From a virus (taxonomy: Duplodnaviria; Heunggongvirae; Uroviricota; Caudoviricetes), in IMG/VR virus record IMGVR_UViG_2778261231_000011: a DNA stretch of 4,141 bases; one strand, given 5' to 3'. Positions 1 to 4,141 of the stretch are shown here, piece by piece. The notes below the pieces were generated by a model that had not been told where the DNA came from, ran no database searches, and saw only the letters and a program-made list of their open reading frames with translations. Position numbers and translations under genes: made by a program. How positions within the stretch are numbered: position 1 is the first letter of the stretch; each line of letters starts with the position of its first letter.

Positions 1-1143
1 CTATGCTGTTTTGATATCTACGATAACCCAGTCTTTACCACGATCATCATTGTATCGGTCGGTCATTTTTCTGGATTTATGGCCTAACAACTTTTGCGTA
101 TCCAGACCCTGTTCCCGATATAACCGTTCTGACAGAGATCGCTGCTCATGAAATGTGGGCGCAGTTCCTTGCTCCCATTTTATGCCACATTTTTCCCTGG
201 CCTTTTTAAAAGCCGTTGTCAGAGTATTTGCAGAAACCTGGTCTCCTCTGTTTGCTTGAGAGGTAGTGTGACGGTAATGGACCAGATATTTACTAACAAC
301 AGCATCCCTGCACTGAGATATAACTTCACGAAGGGTAATATTCAGAGCATCGCATTTCAGGTTAAGCGGAATAGCAAGTTTTGAACCGGTTTTTTCCTGA
401 GTAATGTGCAACATGTCGTCCCATATATCAGAGAATTTCAAATTGCAGATATCGCCTAAACGTTGTCCAGTAACAAGAGCAAGTAGCATGCCGCATTTTA
501 AATAGGGCTGCCGTCTGCTTACGCTTTCAAATATTGCCTGCCATTCGGGCAGTGACAATCTTTGGCGGTTTACTCGATTTCGCGGTTGTTTTGTTGCCTG
601 CGCTGGGTTAAATCCTGGCGGAACATGTCCTGCGTGTTGTGCTTCTTTGAAGACGTCGATCAACACCATTCTCACGACTTGCGCCATCCTGTTATGACCT
701 TCAGCCTTTACAGCATCAATTATTTCGGCAATATCAAGTGCGGTAATATCCTTGAGGTGTTGCATTCCACAATGCTCACGGAAAAGACGAATGGGTTTGC
801 CTTTTTGCCGATAGGAGTTGGGTCTTAGTTCATTATGTTGCAGCCTGTCCTCCTGGATAGAAATATATTTATCAAGCCATTCTGTCACCGTAATGTCTGA
901 GCGCCTGCCTTTCATTCTTTCCAGACGCTCATTGACGCTTAATATTTGTCTGGTACGTTGTTCAGCAATAATGGTATTTGCTTCAGTAGCAACTTGTTTT
1001 GCTTCATTCTCATCAGTTCCTAAGCTATGAAAACGACCGGATAGTGGATGTTTGTATTGCCAATATACCTTTCCGGTTCGCTTATCTAATTTGCAATATA
1101 AATTGGGTATAGAGATTTTGTGAGATCGGGGTCTAGCAGCCAT
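1..1143 (-). CDS. int: Site-specific tyrosine recombinase (lambda Int family integrase), 380 aa, complete with stop at 1-3
   Basis: Full-length minus-strand ORF. The N-terminus (RPRSHKISIPNLY...) resembles the lambda Int arm-binding domain. The C-terminal catalytic region aligns by eye with lambda Int: TGQRLGDICNLKFSDI (Arg), QEKTGSKLAIP (Lys), TFHEQRSLSERLY (His-x-x-Arg), LLGHKSRKMTDRYNDDRG (His and the Tyr nucleophile). Its start overlaps the upstream xis-like ORF as in lambda. Confidence 0.93.
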   Translation of the reverse strand: MAARPRSHKISIPNLYCKLDKRTGKVYWQYKHPLSGRFHSLGTDENEAKQVATEANTIIAEQRTRQILSVNERLERMKGRRSDITVTEWLDKYISIQEDRLQHNELRPNSYRQKGKPIRLFREHCGMQHLKDITALDIAEIIDAVKAEGHNRMAQVVRMVLIDVFKEAQHAGHVPPGFNPAQATKQPRNRVNRQRLSLPEWQAIFESVSRRQPYLKCGMLLALVTGQRLGDICNLKFSDIWDDMLHITQEKTGSKLAIPLNLKCDALNITLREVISQCRDAVVSKYLVHYRHTTSQANRGDQVSANTLTTAFKKAREKCGIKWEQGTAPTFHEQRSLSERLYREQGLDTQKLLGHKSRKMTDRYNDDRGKDWVIVDIKTA

Positions 1144-1369
1144 CAGCGATTATCCGTTGGAGTTTTGGGTTTGCGTTTATTGGGAGTTGCGGTTCTGCCA
1201 GCGTTCCTACAAAACGGGAATTTCGGTCAATCATCCAGTAGCGACCAACTTTTATAGCGGGTGGGGCCATCATTTTCCCTTGCGCGTATTTTTTCAGAAC
1301 TCGCTCACTTGGTGCTAAGTCCCCAAATTCTTCTTTAGCCCAGTCCTGTAAAGTGATTAGTCGAGACAT
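1133..1369 (-). CDS. xis: Excisionase (lambda Xis-like winged-helix), 78 aa
   Basis: The N-terminus MSRLITLQDWAKE and the PPAIKVGRYW motif resemble lambda Xis (MYLTLQEW ... PPPVKDGREY). A strong Shine-Dalgarno (AGGAGG on the minus strand, reverse complement of 1372-1380) sits 4 nt before the ATG. The ORF overlaps the int start by 11 nt (1133-1143), matching the xis-int arrangement. Confidence 0.82.
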   Translation of the reverse strand: MSRLITLQDWAKEEFGDLAPSERVLKKYAQGKMMAPPAIKVGRYWMIDRNSRFVGTLAEPQLPINANPKLQRIIADGC

Positions 1370-1508
1370 TTGTCCTCCTCTTAGCTGCTGAGGGAGTTTG
1401 TGACCGATATATCTGACATGATATTAAGCTCATGGCAGGTACATCTCTTGACTGGTCATAGAGATAAATTTAATGCTGAGAAATGCAGTATTGAATTTAT
1501 CAATTTTT
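1370..1508 (-). promoter_or_regulatory. AT-rich intergenic region between the small-gene cluster and xis-int; candidate internal promoter or regulatory region
   Basis: This is a 139 bp non-coding gap, AT-rich, containing a short inverted repeat (ATATC-n6-GATAT at 1409-1424). No strong sigma70 consensus could be defined by eye on either strand. Confidence 0.2.
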
Positions 1509-1748
1509 CTATTTCCTGCGTATGGCACGTAACTTCTTAATGTGTTCTGCCGTTTCGATCTCTTCTGCTATCCGATCTGCATCAGCTTTATTCACAGGTT
1601 CAAAGTCATGATTAAAGCGGAACATGCTGGCGATACATGTTCTGCCTTTTCGGATGTAGTGAACTTTGTTGTGGGTAGAACGCAGGATTTTGCAGGGAGT
1701 GCCGTGGTGGTCGACGTACCAGGTGTCAGGAAAAATGATTCTGAACAT
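1509..1748 (-). CDS. Hypothetical small prophage protein, 79 aa, His/Cys-containing N-terminal half and charged C-terminal helix
   Basis: Minus-strand ORF with a good ribosome-binding site (minus strand reads tGAGGTgtaaaaATG). The sequence is protein-like, with a charged C-terminal segment AEEIETAEHIKKLRAIRRK. It sits where lambda carries its ea/orf accessory genes after xis. The family was not recognised with confidence. Confidence 0.55.
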   Translation of the reverse strand: MFRIIFPDTWYVDHHGTPCKILRSTHNKVHYIRKGRTCIASMFRFNHDFEPVNKADADRIAEEIETAEHIKKLRAIRRK

Positions 1749-1795
1749 TTTTACACCTCAGTTGGACGATGTTGAAATTTGCTGCTTTGAGGCCA

Positions 1796-2014
1796 TCACA
1801 ATCCCCATTGTTTGTTCTTAAGTTCGATCTCCTCCTGGCAACTTGCACAAGTCCGACAACCCTGAACGGCCAGGCGTCTTCGTTCATCTATGGGATCGCC
1901 ACACTTACAACAATGAGTGGCAGATATAGCCTGGTGGTTCAGACGACGCATTTTTATTGCTGTATTGCGCTGTAATTCTTCGATTTCTGATGCTGAATCA
2001 ATGATGTCTGCCAT
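1796..2014 (-). CDS. DksA/TraR-family C4 zinc-finger protein, 72 aa (TraR-like modulator of host RNA polymerase)
   Basis: The motif HCCKCGDPIDERRRLAVQGCRTCASCQ matches the CxxC-(n)-CxxC zinc finger and the conserved G(N/D)PI(P/D)E-ARR stretch of F-plasmid TraR (CEACGNPIPEARRKIFPGVTLCVECQ). Length and position are typical of prophage TraR homologues. Confidence 0.85.
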   Translation of the reverse strand: MADIIDSASEIEELQRNTAIKMRRLNHQAISATHCCKCGDPIDERRRLAVQGCRTCASCQEEIELKNKQWGL

Positions 2015-2063
2015 CTTCCATTAATCCCTGAATTGTTGGTTAATACGCTTGAGGGTGAATGCG

Positions 2064-2091
2064 AATAATAAAAAAGGAGCCTGTAGCTCCC
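2064..2091 (-). terminator. Candidate intrinsic (rho-independent) terminator on the minus strand
   Basis: The minus-strand RNA would read G-GGAGC-UACAG-GCUCC-UUUUUUAUUAUU: a 5 bp GC-rich stem (plus 2076-2080 pairing with 2086-2090), a 5 nt loop, and a U-tract (plus-strand A-tract 2064-2075). It lies between the stop of the 71-aa ORF and the start of the TraR-like gene. Confidence 0.4.
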
Positions 2092-2112
2092 TGATGATTT
2101 TGCTTTTCATGT

Positions 2113-2328
2113 TCATCGCTCCTTAAAGAAGCCGTTTAACATGCCGATCGCCAGGCTTAAATGAGTCGGTGTGAATCCCATCAGCGTTACCGTTTCGCGG
2201 TGCTTCTTCAGTACGCTACGGCAAATGTCATCGACGTTTTTATCCGGAAACTGCTGTCTGGCTTTTTTGATTTCAGAATTAGCCTGACGGGCAATGCTGC
2301 GAAGGGCGTTTTCCTGCTGAGGTGTCAT
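2113..2328 (-). CDS. Hypothetical small basic protein, 71 aa (alternative in-frame upstream start at 2394 would give 93 aa)
   Basis: This is the listed ORF 2113..2394, called here from the internal Met (MTPQQENALRSIARQ...). That ATG forms an ATGA overlap with the stop of the upstream 27-codon ORF and has a GGGA 8 nt upstream. The 2394 start has no visible Shine-Dalgarno. The protein is net basic. Confidence 0.5.
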   Translation of the reverse strand: MTPQQENALRSIARQANSEIKKARQQFPDKNVDDICRSVLKKHRETVTLMGFTPTHLSLAIGMLNGFFKER

Positions 2329-2408
2329 TGAACAAGTCCCATGTCGGCAAGCATAAGCACACAGAATATGAAGCCCGCTGCCAGAAAAATGCATTCAGTG
2401 GTTGTCAT
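2325..2408 (-). CDS. Unlisted 27-aa hydrophobic micro-ORF (MTTTECIFLAAGFIFCVLMLADMGLVQ), possible small membrane peptide
   Basis: Found by reading the minus strand between two listed ORFs. Its ATG (2408-2406) overlaps the TGA stop of the 63-aa ORF, and its TGA stop (2327-2325) overlaps the ATG of the 71-aa ORF, both as ATGA. The core is hydrophobic, long enough for one transmembrane helix. It falls below the ORF-track size cutoff. Confidence 0.3.
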   Translation of the reverse strand: MTTTECIFLAAGFIFCVLMLADMGLVQ

Positions 2409-2596
2409 ACCTGGTCTCTCTCATCTGCTTCTGCTTTCGCCACCATCATTTCCAGCTTTTGTGAAAGGGATGCGGCTAACGTATGAAATTCTTCGTCTGT
2501 TTCTACTGGTATTGGCACAAACCTGACTCCAATTTGAGCGAGGCTATGTGCCATCTCGATACTCGTTCTTAACTCAACGGGAGATGCTTTATGCAT
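2405..2596 (-). CDS. Hypothetical small acidic protein, 63 aa
   Basis: Minus-strand ORF MHKASPVELRTSIEMAHSLAQIGVRFVPIPVETDEEFHTLAASLSQKLEMMVAKAEADERDQV. It is net acidic, with a purine-rich stretch (GGGGGG) a few nt upstream of the ATG. It is the first gene of the leftward coupled cassette. The family was not recognised. Confidence 0.5.
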   Translation of the reverse strand: MHKASPVELRTSIEMAHSLAQIGVRFVPIPVETDEEFHTLAASLSQKLEMMVAKAEADERDQV

Positions 2597-3150
2597 ACAG
2601 CCCCCCGTTTATTATTTATCTTCTCAGCCAGCCGCTGTGCTTTCAGTGGATTTCTGATAAACGCCTTTACCCGAATCAGGTAAACACAAAAGACAAACTA
2701 ACAAAAGACAATATAAAACCTTTTTCGTCAGAGAATTCTGGCGAATCCTCTGACCAGCCAGAAAACGATCTTCCTGTGGTGAAACCGGATGCTGCAATTC
2801 AGAGCGGCAGCAAGTGGGGGACAGCAGAAGACCTGACCGCCGCAGAGTGGATGTTTGACATGGTGAAGACCATCGCGCCATCAGCCAGAAAACCGAATTT
2901 TGCAGGGTGGGCTAACGATATCCGCCTGATGCGTGAACGTGACGGACGTAACCACCGCGACATGTGTGTACTGTTCCGCTGGGCATGCCAGGACAACTTC
3001 TGGTCCGGTAACGTGCTGAGTCCGGCCAAACTCCGCGACAAGTGGACCCAGCTCGAAATCAACCGAAACAAGCAACAGGCTGGCGTGACAGCCGGCAAAC
3101 CAAAACTCGACCTGACGAACACTGACTGGATTTACGGGGTGGAGCTATGA
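2548..3150 (+). CDS. O: Replication protein O, C-terminal (P-interacting) domain only; N-terminally truncated with a non-homologous GTG-initiated 5' extension; possibly a pseudogene or remnant
   Basis: From about 2685 onward the translation (TKDKLTKDNIKPFSSENSGESSDQPENDL...WGTAEDLTAAEWMFDMVKTIAPSARKPNFAGWANDIRLMRERDGRNHRDMCVLFRWACQDNFWSGNVLSPAKLRDKWTQLEINRNKQQAGVT...KPKLDLTNTDWIYGVEL) matches, from memory, the linker and C-terminal domain of lambda O. The stop overlaps the P start as ATGA, as in lambda. The first roughly 45 codons show no O similarity. The frame opens at 2527 and the only upstream start is GTG 2548 (GAGG 4 nt upstream); the first in-frame ATG is 2584. Confidence 0.7.
   Translation: MPSRYSFLTQREMLYAYSPPFIIYLLSQPLCFQWISDKRLYPNQVNTKDKLTKDNIKPFSSENSGESSDQPENDLPVVKPDAAIQSGSKWGTAEDLTAAEWMFDMVKTIAPSARKPNFAGWANDIRLMRERDGRNHRDMCVLFRWACQDNFWSGNVLSPAKLRDKWTQLEINRNKQQAGVTAGKPKLDLTNTDWIYGVEL
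2681..2740. other. Remnant of a lambda-type replication origin: AT-rich unwinding segment without the upstream iterons
   Basis: An AT-rich run carries the direct repeat ACAAAAGACAA twice (2686-2696 and 2701-2711), followed by TTTTTCGTCAGAGAATTCTGGCGAATCC with an EcoRI site at 2733-2738. This matches my recollection of the right half of ori-lambda, which lies inside O. No 18-19 bp iteron repeats are visible in the 250 bp upstream. Confidence 0.5.
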
Positions 3151-3848
3151 AAAACATCGCCGCACAGATGGTTAACTTTGACCGTGAGCAGATGCGCCGG
3201 ATCGCCAACAACATGCCGGAACAGTACGACGAAAAGCCGCAGGTACAACAGGTAGCGCAGATCATCAATGGTGTGTTCAGCCAGTTACTGGCAACTTTCC
3301 CGGCGAGCCTGGCTAACCGGGACCAGAACGAACTGAACGAAATCCGCCGCCAGTGGGTGCTGGCTTTCCGGGAAAACGGGATCACCACAATGGAACAGGT
3401 TAACGCAGGAATGCGCGTAGCCCGTCGGCAGAATCGACCATTCCTGCCATCACCCGGGCAGTTTGTTGCCTGGTGCCGGGAAGAAGCATCCGTTAACGCC
3501 GGGCTGCCAAACGTCAGCGAGCTGGTTGATATGGTCTATGAGTATTGTCGGAAGCGTGGCCTGTATCCGGATGCAGAGTCTTATCCGTGGAAATCAAACG
3601 CGCACTACTGGCTGGTTACCAACCTGTACCAGAACATGCGGGCCAATGCGCTTACTGATGCGGAATTACGGCGCAAGGCTGCCGATGAACTGACTTGTAT
3701 GACCGCGCGAATTAACCGTGGTGAGGCGATACCTGAACCAGTAAAACAACTTCCTGTCATGGGCGGTAGACCTCTAAATCGTGCACAGGCTCTGGCGAAG
3801 ATCGCAGAAATCAAAGCGAAGTTCGGACTGAAAGGAGCAACTGTATGA
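3147..3848 (+). CDS. P: Replication protein P (lambda P family; DnaB helicase loader), 233 aa
   Basis: The translation (MKNIAAQMVNFDREQMRRIANNMPEQYDEKPQVQQVAQIINGVFSQLLATFPASL ... AKIAEIKAKFGLKGATV) is recognised as near-identical to bacteriophage lambda P at the same length. ATGA overlaps link it to O' upstream and ren downstream. Confidence 0.93.
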   Translation: MKNIAAQMVNFDREQMRRIANNMPEQYDEKPQVQQVAQIINGVFSQLLATFPASLANRDQNELNEIRRQWVLAFRENGITTMEQVNAGMRVARRQNRPFLPSPGQFVAWCREEASVNAGLPNVSELVDMVYEYCRKRGLYPDAESYPWKSNAHYWLVTNLYQNMRANALTDAELRRKAADELTCMTARINRGEAIPEPVKQLPVMGGRPLNRAQALAKIAEIKAKFGLKGATV

Positions 3849-4141
3849 CGGGCAAAGAGGTAATTATTCATTATCTGGAGACGCACAAGAGCTTCTGTGC
3901 GCAGGACGTTGCTGCGGCAACAGGTGTGACAGTAACCTGCATAAATCAGGCAGCAGCTAAAATGGCGCGGGCAGGAATCCTGGTCATTGATGGTAAGGTC
4001 TGGCGAACGGTGTATTACCGGTTCGCTACCAGAGAAGAACGGGAAGGAAAGGTGAGCACGAACCTGATTTTTAAGGAGTGTCGCCAGAGTGCCGCGATGA
4101 AGCGGGTGTTGGCGGTATATGGGTTATTAGTTATTACTTGA
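3845..4141 (+). CDS. ren: Ren (Rex-exclusion resistance protein) homologue, 98 aa, complete with stop at 4139-4141
   Basis: The translation MTGKEVIIHYLETHKSFCAQDVAAATGVTVTCINQAAAKMARAGILVIDGKVWRTVYYRFATREEREGKVSTNLIFKECRQSAAMKRVL closely matches lambda Ren as I recall it. It sits immediately after P with an ATGA overlap. The last roughly 8 residues may diverge from lambda. Confidence 0.82.
   Translation: MTGKEVIIHYLETHKSFCAQDVAAATGVTVTCINQAAAKMARAGILVIDGKVWRTVYYRFATREEREGKVSTNLIFKECRQSAAMKRVLAVYGLLVIT

Follow-up and report, generated by a model that had tools for sequence, protein, structure and literature searches.

What does the AT-rich, repeat-bearing segment inside an O-like reading frame of this lambdoid DNA represent: a replication origin that could still be used, or the stump of one that has been lost? 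The question was addressed within a window of 4,141 nt (the whole stretch of DNA analysed), with L007, the intact icd-integrated prophage of E. coli B-1109, as the BLAST reference. The ORFs of the window comprise six that run leftward followed by three that run rightward, and the DUF1317 remnant is listed with them:

1-1143, minus strand: tyrosine integrase of the lambda-Int family (380-aa ORF; Pfam Arm-DNA-bind_1 and Phage_integrase).
1133-1369, minus strand: excisionase (78-aa ORF; Pfam Exc, E=6.7e-6; annotated as excisionase in relatives).
1509-1748, minus strand: DUF4222 gene (Pfam PF13973, E=5e-19).
1796-2014, minus strand: TraR/DksA-type zinc-finger gene (Pfam PF01258, E=1.3e-8).
2113-2394, minus strand: small hypothetical gene (longest ORF 93 aa; no Pfam match above the cut-off).
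2405-2596, minus strand: intact DUF1382 gene (Pfam PF07131, E=3e-31; annotated as DUF1382 in relatives).
2569-2660, minus strand: 3' half of a DUF1317 gene (92 of 183 nt), the left side of a deletion (DUF1317 is annotated at L007 4015-4197).
2584-3150, plus strand: 188-aa fusion ORF (also called as a gene in public assemblies).
3147-3848, plus strand: replication protein P, the helicase loader, at its full length of 233 aa (Pfam PF06992, E=8.8e-62).
3845-4141, plus strand: ren-like gene of 98 aa (ORF; no Pfam match).

In relatives, the small hypothetical gene is annotated as a 71-aa product corresponding to 2113-2328, and the ren-like position is annotated either as 'protein ren' or as 'exclusion protein Ren'. 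In four relatives (L003, L004, L006 and L008) icd is followed immediately by the integrase, so the element of the window was taken to be a prophage at the icd site. The window thus reads as one end, the left, of a defective lambdoid prophage that sits beside icd in the chromosome of an Escherichia host.

The sequence around the start of the O-like region contains five features on which the argument turns:

2658-2660, unstranded: deletion junction with a 3-bp microhomology, TAA (BLAST segments against L007 overlap by exactly 3 nt).
2661-2665, plus strand: last base of iteron 4 (A, 2661) and the CGCC spacer between iterons 4 and 5 (2662-2665), identical to L007 9004-9008.
2666-2684, plus strand: sole surviving iteron, TTTACCCGAATCAGGTAAA, a 19-bp interrupted palindrome corresponding to the fifth of five parental iterons (consensus search).
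2685-2725, plus strand: AT-rich, A-strand-biased origin segment with both ACAAAAGACAA repeats, the presumed unwinding element (composition and lambda alignment).
2727-2738 and 2743-2754, unstranded: inverted repeat GTCAGAGAATTC / GAATCCTCTGAC holding an EcoRI site (repeat finder; 12-nt arms, 92% complementary).

The motif ACAAAAGACAA occurs exactly twice in the window, both times on the plus strand (2686-2696 and 2701-2711, a spacing of 15 nt), and a repeat finder returned the pair as 15-nt units. Two such matches were obtained in none of 200 dinucleotide-preserving shuffles, even when one mismatch was allowed. The segment that holds them, 2685-2725, is identical in sequence to the parent and has the composition of an AT-rich origin element, with 76% A+T and 23 A against 8 T. 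The G+C minimum of the surrounding region falls at about 2680-2719 (0.25; the window as a whole has 0.47), together with a strong A-over-T skew. The sole GAATTC of the window follows at 2733-2738, and the inverted repeat around it is carried by lambda in identical sequence.

Alignment to the lambda origin, a check proposed with the original prediction, placed 2661-2740 on lambda 39096-39175 column for column and without a gap; this lambda stretch takes in iteron 4, the AT-rich part of ori and the EcoRI site. Identity amounted to 31/41 positions over the AT-rich part (2685-2725 against lambda 39120-39160) and to 46/56 when the comparison was extended to cover the EcoRI site (2685-2740 against lambda 39120-39175), with the EcoRI site aligned to lambda position 39168. 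The iterons of the origin in P22 gene 18 are likewise followed by this pair of repeats (ACAAAAGACAATAT / ACAAAAGACAATAA). Given the alignment to lambda and the occurrence in P22, the ACAAAAGACAA repeat is a conserved feature of lambdoid origins and no chance match. The two direct repeats and the adjoining EcoRI segment (site starting at 2733) that had been noticed from the sequence are therefore real. Their assignment to the AT-rich element of ori-lambda holds in part: a lambdoid AT-rich segment does lie within the O coding sequence, but the parental origin is not of the lambda type.

This distinction rests on the iterons. Directly abutting the AT-rich segment, in the slot occupied by lambda ITN4, stands TTTACCCGAATCAGGTAAA; the annotated iteron 4 of lambda (39101-39118) lies opposite window 2666-2683, and only 9 of 18 positions are identical between the two. 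In the O genes of PhiR70_1 and L007, the parental iterons are five 19-bp interrupted palindromes of consensus TTTACCyrAAwsAGGTAAr, followed directly at the 3' side of the array by CACAAAAGACAAACTAACAAAAGACAA. In intact relatives the start-to-start spacing of the five is 29, 19, 24 and 23 nt. When the window was searched with this consensus at up to three mismatches, a single site was recovered (2666-2684), and shuffled sequences gave none. Copy numbers across loci were determined by searching for a 17-nt core pattern, TTACCYRAAWSAGGTAA, which is present in five copies each in L001, L002, L003, L006 and L007 and in one copy in the window and in L008-L014. The window thus holds no array of at least four 18-19 bp iterons, having one iteron where intact relatives have five.

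No degenerate iterons were detected upstream of 2685 by a repeat finder (seed 7), by TRF (minimum score 30) or by the consensus search at three mismatches; the complete iteron at 2666-2684 was the sole yield. Furthermore, the sequence to the left of 2660 is not derived from an origin, since it is 100% identical to the DUF1317 and DUF1382 genes of intact prophages. Lambda-type iterons (TCCCTCAAAACGAGGGA) were also sought in the window at up to three mismatches and none was found; the origin accordingly lacks lambda specificity and falls outside the ori-lambda specificity group formed by lambda and 434. The 5' half of the parental O gene shares 75.6% DNA identity with P22 gene 18, and the protein alignment shows an O whose N-terminal half resembles that of P22 and whose C-terminal half resembles that of lambda. 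By sequence comparison, the parental origin is of a five-iteron, P22-gp18-like type, combined with a lambda-like O C-terminus and P. Such a mosaic five-iteron origin is already present in many deposited phage genomes and holds nothing surprising for a specialist. It does show that a search for lambda-type iterons alone is not enough to find or score lambdoid origins.

Comparison with L007 revealed how the array came to be truncated. Apart from one deletion of 4,897 bp, window and L007 differ by 2 mismatches in 4141 nt: window 1-2660 corresponds to L007 1447-4106 with 1 mismatch (99.96%), window 2658-4141 corresponds to L007 9001-10484, likewise with 1 mismatch (99.93%), and L007 4107-9003 is absent. 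Since both BLAST segments overlap by TAA, the window can be described as an L007-type prophage with a single deletion. The flanks of the junction are imperfectly similar (TCTGATAA versus TCAGGTAA, 6/8), and the combination of microhomology and imperfect flank similarity is typical of illegitimate recombination. On the right, the break (L007 9001-9003) falls among the final bases of iteron 4, which occupies L007 8986-9004.

Independent sequences agree on where the two halves meet. The match to phage O genes begins at window position 2658, and several complete E. coli genomes contain a 100% match to 2658-2800 inside a full-length O. Conversely, intact DUF1382-DUF1317 pairs match up to 2660, with identity to intact DUF1317 genes of 100% ending at that position. 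In B-1109 a 100% match to the left side is also present, some 5 kb from the O match. Such an arrangement, in which one junction is flanked on either side by sequence colinear with an intact prophage and the genes in between are gone, is that of a defective prophage derived by deletion. The deleted interval comprises the 5' half of DUF1317, exo, bet, gam and a kil-like division inhibitor, together with an S24-peptidase (cI-like) repressor, a cro-like regulator, a YdaT-domain gene at the place of cII, and the initial 530 nt of O, which encode the origin-binding domain (PF04492) and contain iterons 1-4. Both regulator genes, cI-like and cro-like, and what lies between them (L007 6832-7856), the site of a lambdoid pR, are within the deletion. 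The window is best read as a deletion-derived defective prophage, a new allele of a well-known form of decay. Its origin once worked like one of the lambdoid O/P kind, but as it stands it is short of three defining elements: the iteron array, the DNA-binding domain of the initiator and the activating promoter.

The 188-aa ORF is a product of the same event. Its first 26 or so codons are antisense to DUF1382/DUF1317, and from 2661 onwards it encodes the C-terminal ~162 residues of O, beginning at about residue 178 of the intact protein. This remnant is the part of O that is nearly identical to lambda O: window 2726-3150 and lambda 39161-39585 agree at 410 of 425 positions. No Pfam family was assigned to the fusion ORF, whereas intact O has PF04492 at residues 51-145; an initiator with an N-terminal origin-binding domain (Phage_rep_O) is thus missing around the origin segment. 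The helicase-loader gene P, by comparison, lies immediately 3' of the O remnant, as at an origin of this kind. An alternative GTG start at 2548, giving 200 aa, had no record in an exact-protein look-up. A promoter consensus scan of 2000-3300 returned one plus-strand site (2040-2069, 9/12), approximately 500 nt upstream, and shuffled sequences gave no fewer; the scan is crude and would be compatible with a weak promoter. With the pR-type region deleted and the consensus scan at shuffle level, no nearby activating promoter for the origin was recognised. The proper label for the ORF at 2584-3150 is a truncated O pseudogene fused to antisense sequence, and the prophage is best classed as replication-defective, with no immunity region.

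Several known systems place this remnant in context. Ori-lambda (lambda 39034-39160) occupies the same site in O, at the boundary of two protein domains, and has the same order of iterons, an AT-rich, A-biased segment of ~40 bp and the EcoRI palindrome; it is followed by the O C-terminal part described above (410/425) and then by P and ren, as in the window. It differs in iteron sequence and in iteron number (four, against five in the parent and one in the window), and from the window both the N-terminal domain of O and the repressor/cro control region have been deleted. The origin in P22 gene 18 has iterons of the same type as the parent (ATTTACCAGATCGGTAAAAC and similar, four copies) that lead directly into two ACAAAAGACAAT repeats, but the C-terminal domain of gp18 is of another kind, and the next gene is gene 12, an annotated helicase, instead of lambda P. 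The closest likeness is to the phages 4A7, Lambda_4C10, Perceval, 1W, 3W and PhiR70_1, whose O genes are 96-98% identical to the parental one. Phages of the 4A7/PhiR70_1 type have five iterons at the same spacing and the same AT-rich segment, with P, ren and emrE downstream; they are complete genomes with a full origin, whereas the window is without iterons 1-4 and everything from DUF1317 to mid-O.

The region has been lost more than once. Three further deletions of this interval, all independent, are found in sister prophages at icd and are given here in L007 coordinates beside that of the window:

L003, missing 4170-8065: O and origin intact.
L004, missing 4849-9255: origin wholly lost; exo fused to a 237-nt O remnant.
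L006 (O157:H7 strain), missing 2956-8704: O N-terminus lost; all five iterons kept.
Window, missing 4107-9003: one of five iterons kept.

The repressor/cro region, gam and kil were lost in all four deletions and bet in three of the four, while int-xis and P-ren were kept in every one. The simplest reading is that deletions which disable induction, kil-type killing or origin firing would be tolerated or favoured; deletions of this interval probably persist since a prophage dangerous to its host thereby loses its control and killing functions. If deletions are tolerated or favoured in this way, the exact breakpoint within the iteron array would be incidental. The four independent icd deletions of one interval are a natural parallel to the laboratory experiments that select for cells surviving prophage replicative killing.

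DLP12 of E. coli K-12, a cryptic lambdoid remnant with int, xis, an exo fragment, an O/P fragment, ren and emrE, is a classic case of the same decay, in which genes of the left operon are brought up against the replication genes by an internal deletion while int-xis and P-ren remain. Relative to the window, it has another insertion site, another integrase and other breakpoints, and the deletion in the window cuts within the iteron array. Among the sister prophages, L004 has the exo fusion to the O remnant, and P, ren, emrE and a ybcK-like recombinase come after it.

We consider it highly probable (about 0.88) that the origin stump is a deletion relic of a decayed prophage, with the parent, breakpoints and iteron count described here, and that it does not fire. 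Of this, the anatomy, the parent, the breakpoints, the iteron count and the natural character of the junction follow from the sequence comparisons. The leftward DUF1317 gene, cut in its middle, was fused to the rightward O gene within the last bases of iteron 4, probably by illegitimate recombination at TAA. The origin parts kept in this way, namely iteron 5, the AT-rich segment with its ACAAAAGACAA pair and the EcoRI palindrome, now lie inside a meaningless fusion ORF. With one iteron, the multi-iteron initiator assembly should be unable to form; the resident initiator has lost its DNA-binding domain; and the deleted interval takes in the repressor/cro region, the expected place of a lambdoid pR. 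The remnant should consequently be incapable of firing as an origin, with or without a helper.

Published work on lambda supports this expectation. In the mutants r95, r96, r98 and ti12, lesions in the iteron or AT-rich part of the origin inside O render the phage replication-defective (PMC6022878); the first three are in-frame ori-lambda deletions of 12-24 bp, and loss of a single iteron or of 12-15 bp of the AT-rich segment has this effect (PMC6022878). These are laboratory-selected in-frame deletions of 12-24 bp or a point change, whereas the window carries a natural 4.9-kb deletion which, unlike the lesions of the r mutants, also takes the initiator DNA-binding domain and the control region. 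Transcription is required for ori-lambda activity (PMC5043065), and Stx phages replicate efficiently only when their two extra, weakly bound iterons are present as well (PMC7466680). Given that small ori-lambda deletions inactivate the origin, that transcription is required and that even weakly bound iterons count towards efficient replication in Stx phages, the stump should not initiate replication. A single lambda iteron does bind O in vitro (PMC7466680), which makes residual binding of cognate O to the surviving iteron plausible; the iteron may still serve as a binding site for the cognate O of a superinfecting phage.

It could be argued from this binding that the stump is a minimal usable origin, in which one iteron and the unwinding element suffice for opening of the DNA and some local replication when a superinfecting or co-resident phage of the 4A7 type supplies cognate O together with P. 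The last iteron, the AT-rich segment and the palindrome are indeed intact and identical to the parent, P is intact, and the in vitro binding of O by single lambda iterons points the same way (PMC7466680). We nevertheless regard this as very unlikely, given that losses of one iteron or of 12-15 bp of AT-rich sequence already make lambda replication-defective (PMC6022878), that even weakly bound extra iterons are needed by Stx phages for efficient replication (PMC7466680), and that the repressor/cro region, site of the lambdoid pR, is deleted. In the literature, judged from later open-access summaries, we found no measurement of the minimum iteron number of a P22-like five-iteron origin. Were the stump active, it would provide a natural test of that number; nothing here points to activity.

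Alternatively, the locus might be an anti-phage module that has been retained, its iteron acting as a decoy for incoming O, or its O C-terminal fragment, P or Ren disturbing superinfecting lambdoid phages. Plasmids bearing ori-lambda iterons block lambda replication (PMC3349717; PMC4488673), P or its N-terminal part, when expressed, prevents O complementation (PMC6022878), and both P and the ren-like gene are intact in the window. The published effects, however, need multicopy plasmids (20-40 copies with four iterons each) and, in one of the systems, ITN3-4 and oop transcription (PMC3349717; PMC4488673); the one chromosomal iteron here falls far short of that as a decoy. The consensus scan gave no convincing promoter upstream of the fusion ORF. 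Moreover, the intactness of P and ren calls for no selection, because the deletion is young (2 substitutions in 4141 nt). A retained anti-phage role is in our judgement very improbable. A broader proposal is that the stump acts as a chromosomal trap or dominant-negative module against superinfecting phages of the same origin specificity, or as a minimal origin that fires, with local over-replication, once such a phage provides O, and that the recurrent sister deletions were partly selected for such a module: we hold it to be quite improbable.

The original prediction had placed the locus among ori-lambda derivatives that have lost all four iterons, with the breakpoint at the boundary between iterons and AT-rich segment near 2685. 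In its favour are an AT-rich segment homologous to that of lambda, and the absence of both lambda-type iterons and a repeat array upstream of 2685. Against it stand a perfect cognate iteron at 2666-2684, a junction at 2658-2660 and a parent with five P22-gp18-like iterons; as a whole, this version is refuted by the L007 junction comparison together with the iteron searches, and we give it almost no weight. Parts of it survive. The breakpoint does fall inside the origin, in the end of iteron 4, albeit some 25 nt further left than supposed. The array is mostly gone, as had been stated, but one complete iteron is left, and the parent had five iterons in place of four of the TCCCTC type. Similarly, the recommended repeat search upstream of 2685 found no four-iteron array but did leave that one iteron. 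The prediction that the remnant would be unable to initiate replication is a reasonable one, in view of the inactivating ori-lambda deletions of 12-24 bp (PMC6022878) and the need for transcription (PMC5043065). A helper supplying lambda O would be the wrong test, and an uninformative one, because the iterons are of another specificity; cognate O would come from phages of the 4A7/PhiR70_1 type.

Returning to the reading as a deletion relic, its junction was traced in public assemblies. An exact look-up of the 188-aa fusion ORF returned 14 contigs, drawn from two NCBI assemblies, an ENA metagenome and several Logan assemblies. The junction proved reproducible, its 37-mer being present in all seven loci that were fetched (L008-L014); these loci are 100% identical to the window wherever they cover it, four spanning the full window and three a part. 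That an assembly or chimeric artefact has joined two parts of a normal prophage might be suspected from the absence of the junction in complete RefSeq E. coli genomes (0/5426) and of its 37-mer in GTDB species representatives and IMG/VR, but with the junction and 100% identical flanks recurring in independent NCBI, ENA and Logan assemblies, including one NCBI contig of 1.26 Mb, the idea is scarcely credible. Since junction and flanks are 100% identical in independent assemblies, the deletion is real and belongs to one lineage; it is also recent, as only two substitutions separate the window from the B-1109 prophage. In one carrier of the junction, L008, the prophage matches L007 only up to L007 12921, and IS1 genes lie just beyond.

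The intact O gene of the icd-integrated prophage of E. coli B-1109 (L007), referred to here as the parental O, is a mosaic (loci compared: L007 8474-9493, L016 551-1366 and L015 87-986). The N-terminal half is a relative of P22 gp18 and is accompanied by P22-type iterons. The C-terminal half closely matches lambda O, with near-identity, and a lambda-type P comes after it. Such an arrangement fits the known two-domain design, in which the origin lies at the domain boundary.

In the window, public gene callers assign a 188-aa protein to positions 2584-3150 (+). Residues 1 to approximately 26 of this product derive from the antisense strand of DUF1382/DUF1317, and the remainder constitutes the C-terminal part of O. 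Against Pfam the fusion ORF gave no match; it falls in a cluster with hundreds of E. coli entries named 'replication protein O, partial'. Pseudogene is the annotation that this stretch should carry.

At 2632-2649 (+), just left of the deletion junction and within the DUF1317 remnant, there is also a terminator-like hairpin with a run rich in T directly behind it. If functional, this predicted terminator would further restrict rightward transcription into the O remnant, P and ren.

Comparison with L007 revealed three more independent deletions among the sister prophages at icd (L003, L004 and L006).

Deletions in icd prophages (L007 coordinates).
Window: 4107-9003
L003: 4170-8065; origin left intact
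L004: 4849-9255; origin absent
L006: 2956-8704; origin intact behind a truncated O

The repressor/cro control region, gam and kil are gone in all four cases and bet in three of the four; int-xis and P-ren are retained throughout.

Examination of L008 (9995-10748), the 1.26-Mb contig carrying the window, showed that its match to the B-1109 prophage ends at L007 12921, at or inside a DUF4041 gene. Past the end of this similarity lie IS1 genes and then an autotransporter gene. Thus, the prophage in L008 has undergone at least one further truncation.

The longest ORF at window 2113-2394 (-) encodes 93 aa; in relatives, a 71-aa product with an internal start is annotated. Its sole Pfam hint, at E=0.008 and thus sub-threshold, pointed to a zinc-binding DNA-binding domain of viral type.

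Of the two positions at which the window and the B-1109 prophage differ, one is the mismatch at 4125, where the TGA stop of B-1109 becomes TTA (4124-4126). Because of this change the ren-like ORF is five codons longer in the window, at 98 aa versus the 93 aa annotated in B-1109. In the deposited genomes of phages that carry this replication module, and likewise in the sister prophages, ren is directly followed by emrE, encoding a small multidrug efflux protein.

Positions of emrE.
L001 (deposited phage genome): 3058-3390
L004 (sister prophage): 8338-8670
L006 (sister prophage): 5862-6194

B-1109 and the lineage of the window possess an HD-domain gene after ren in place of emrE.
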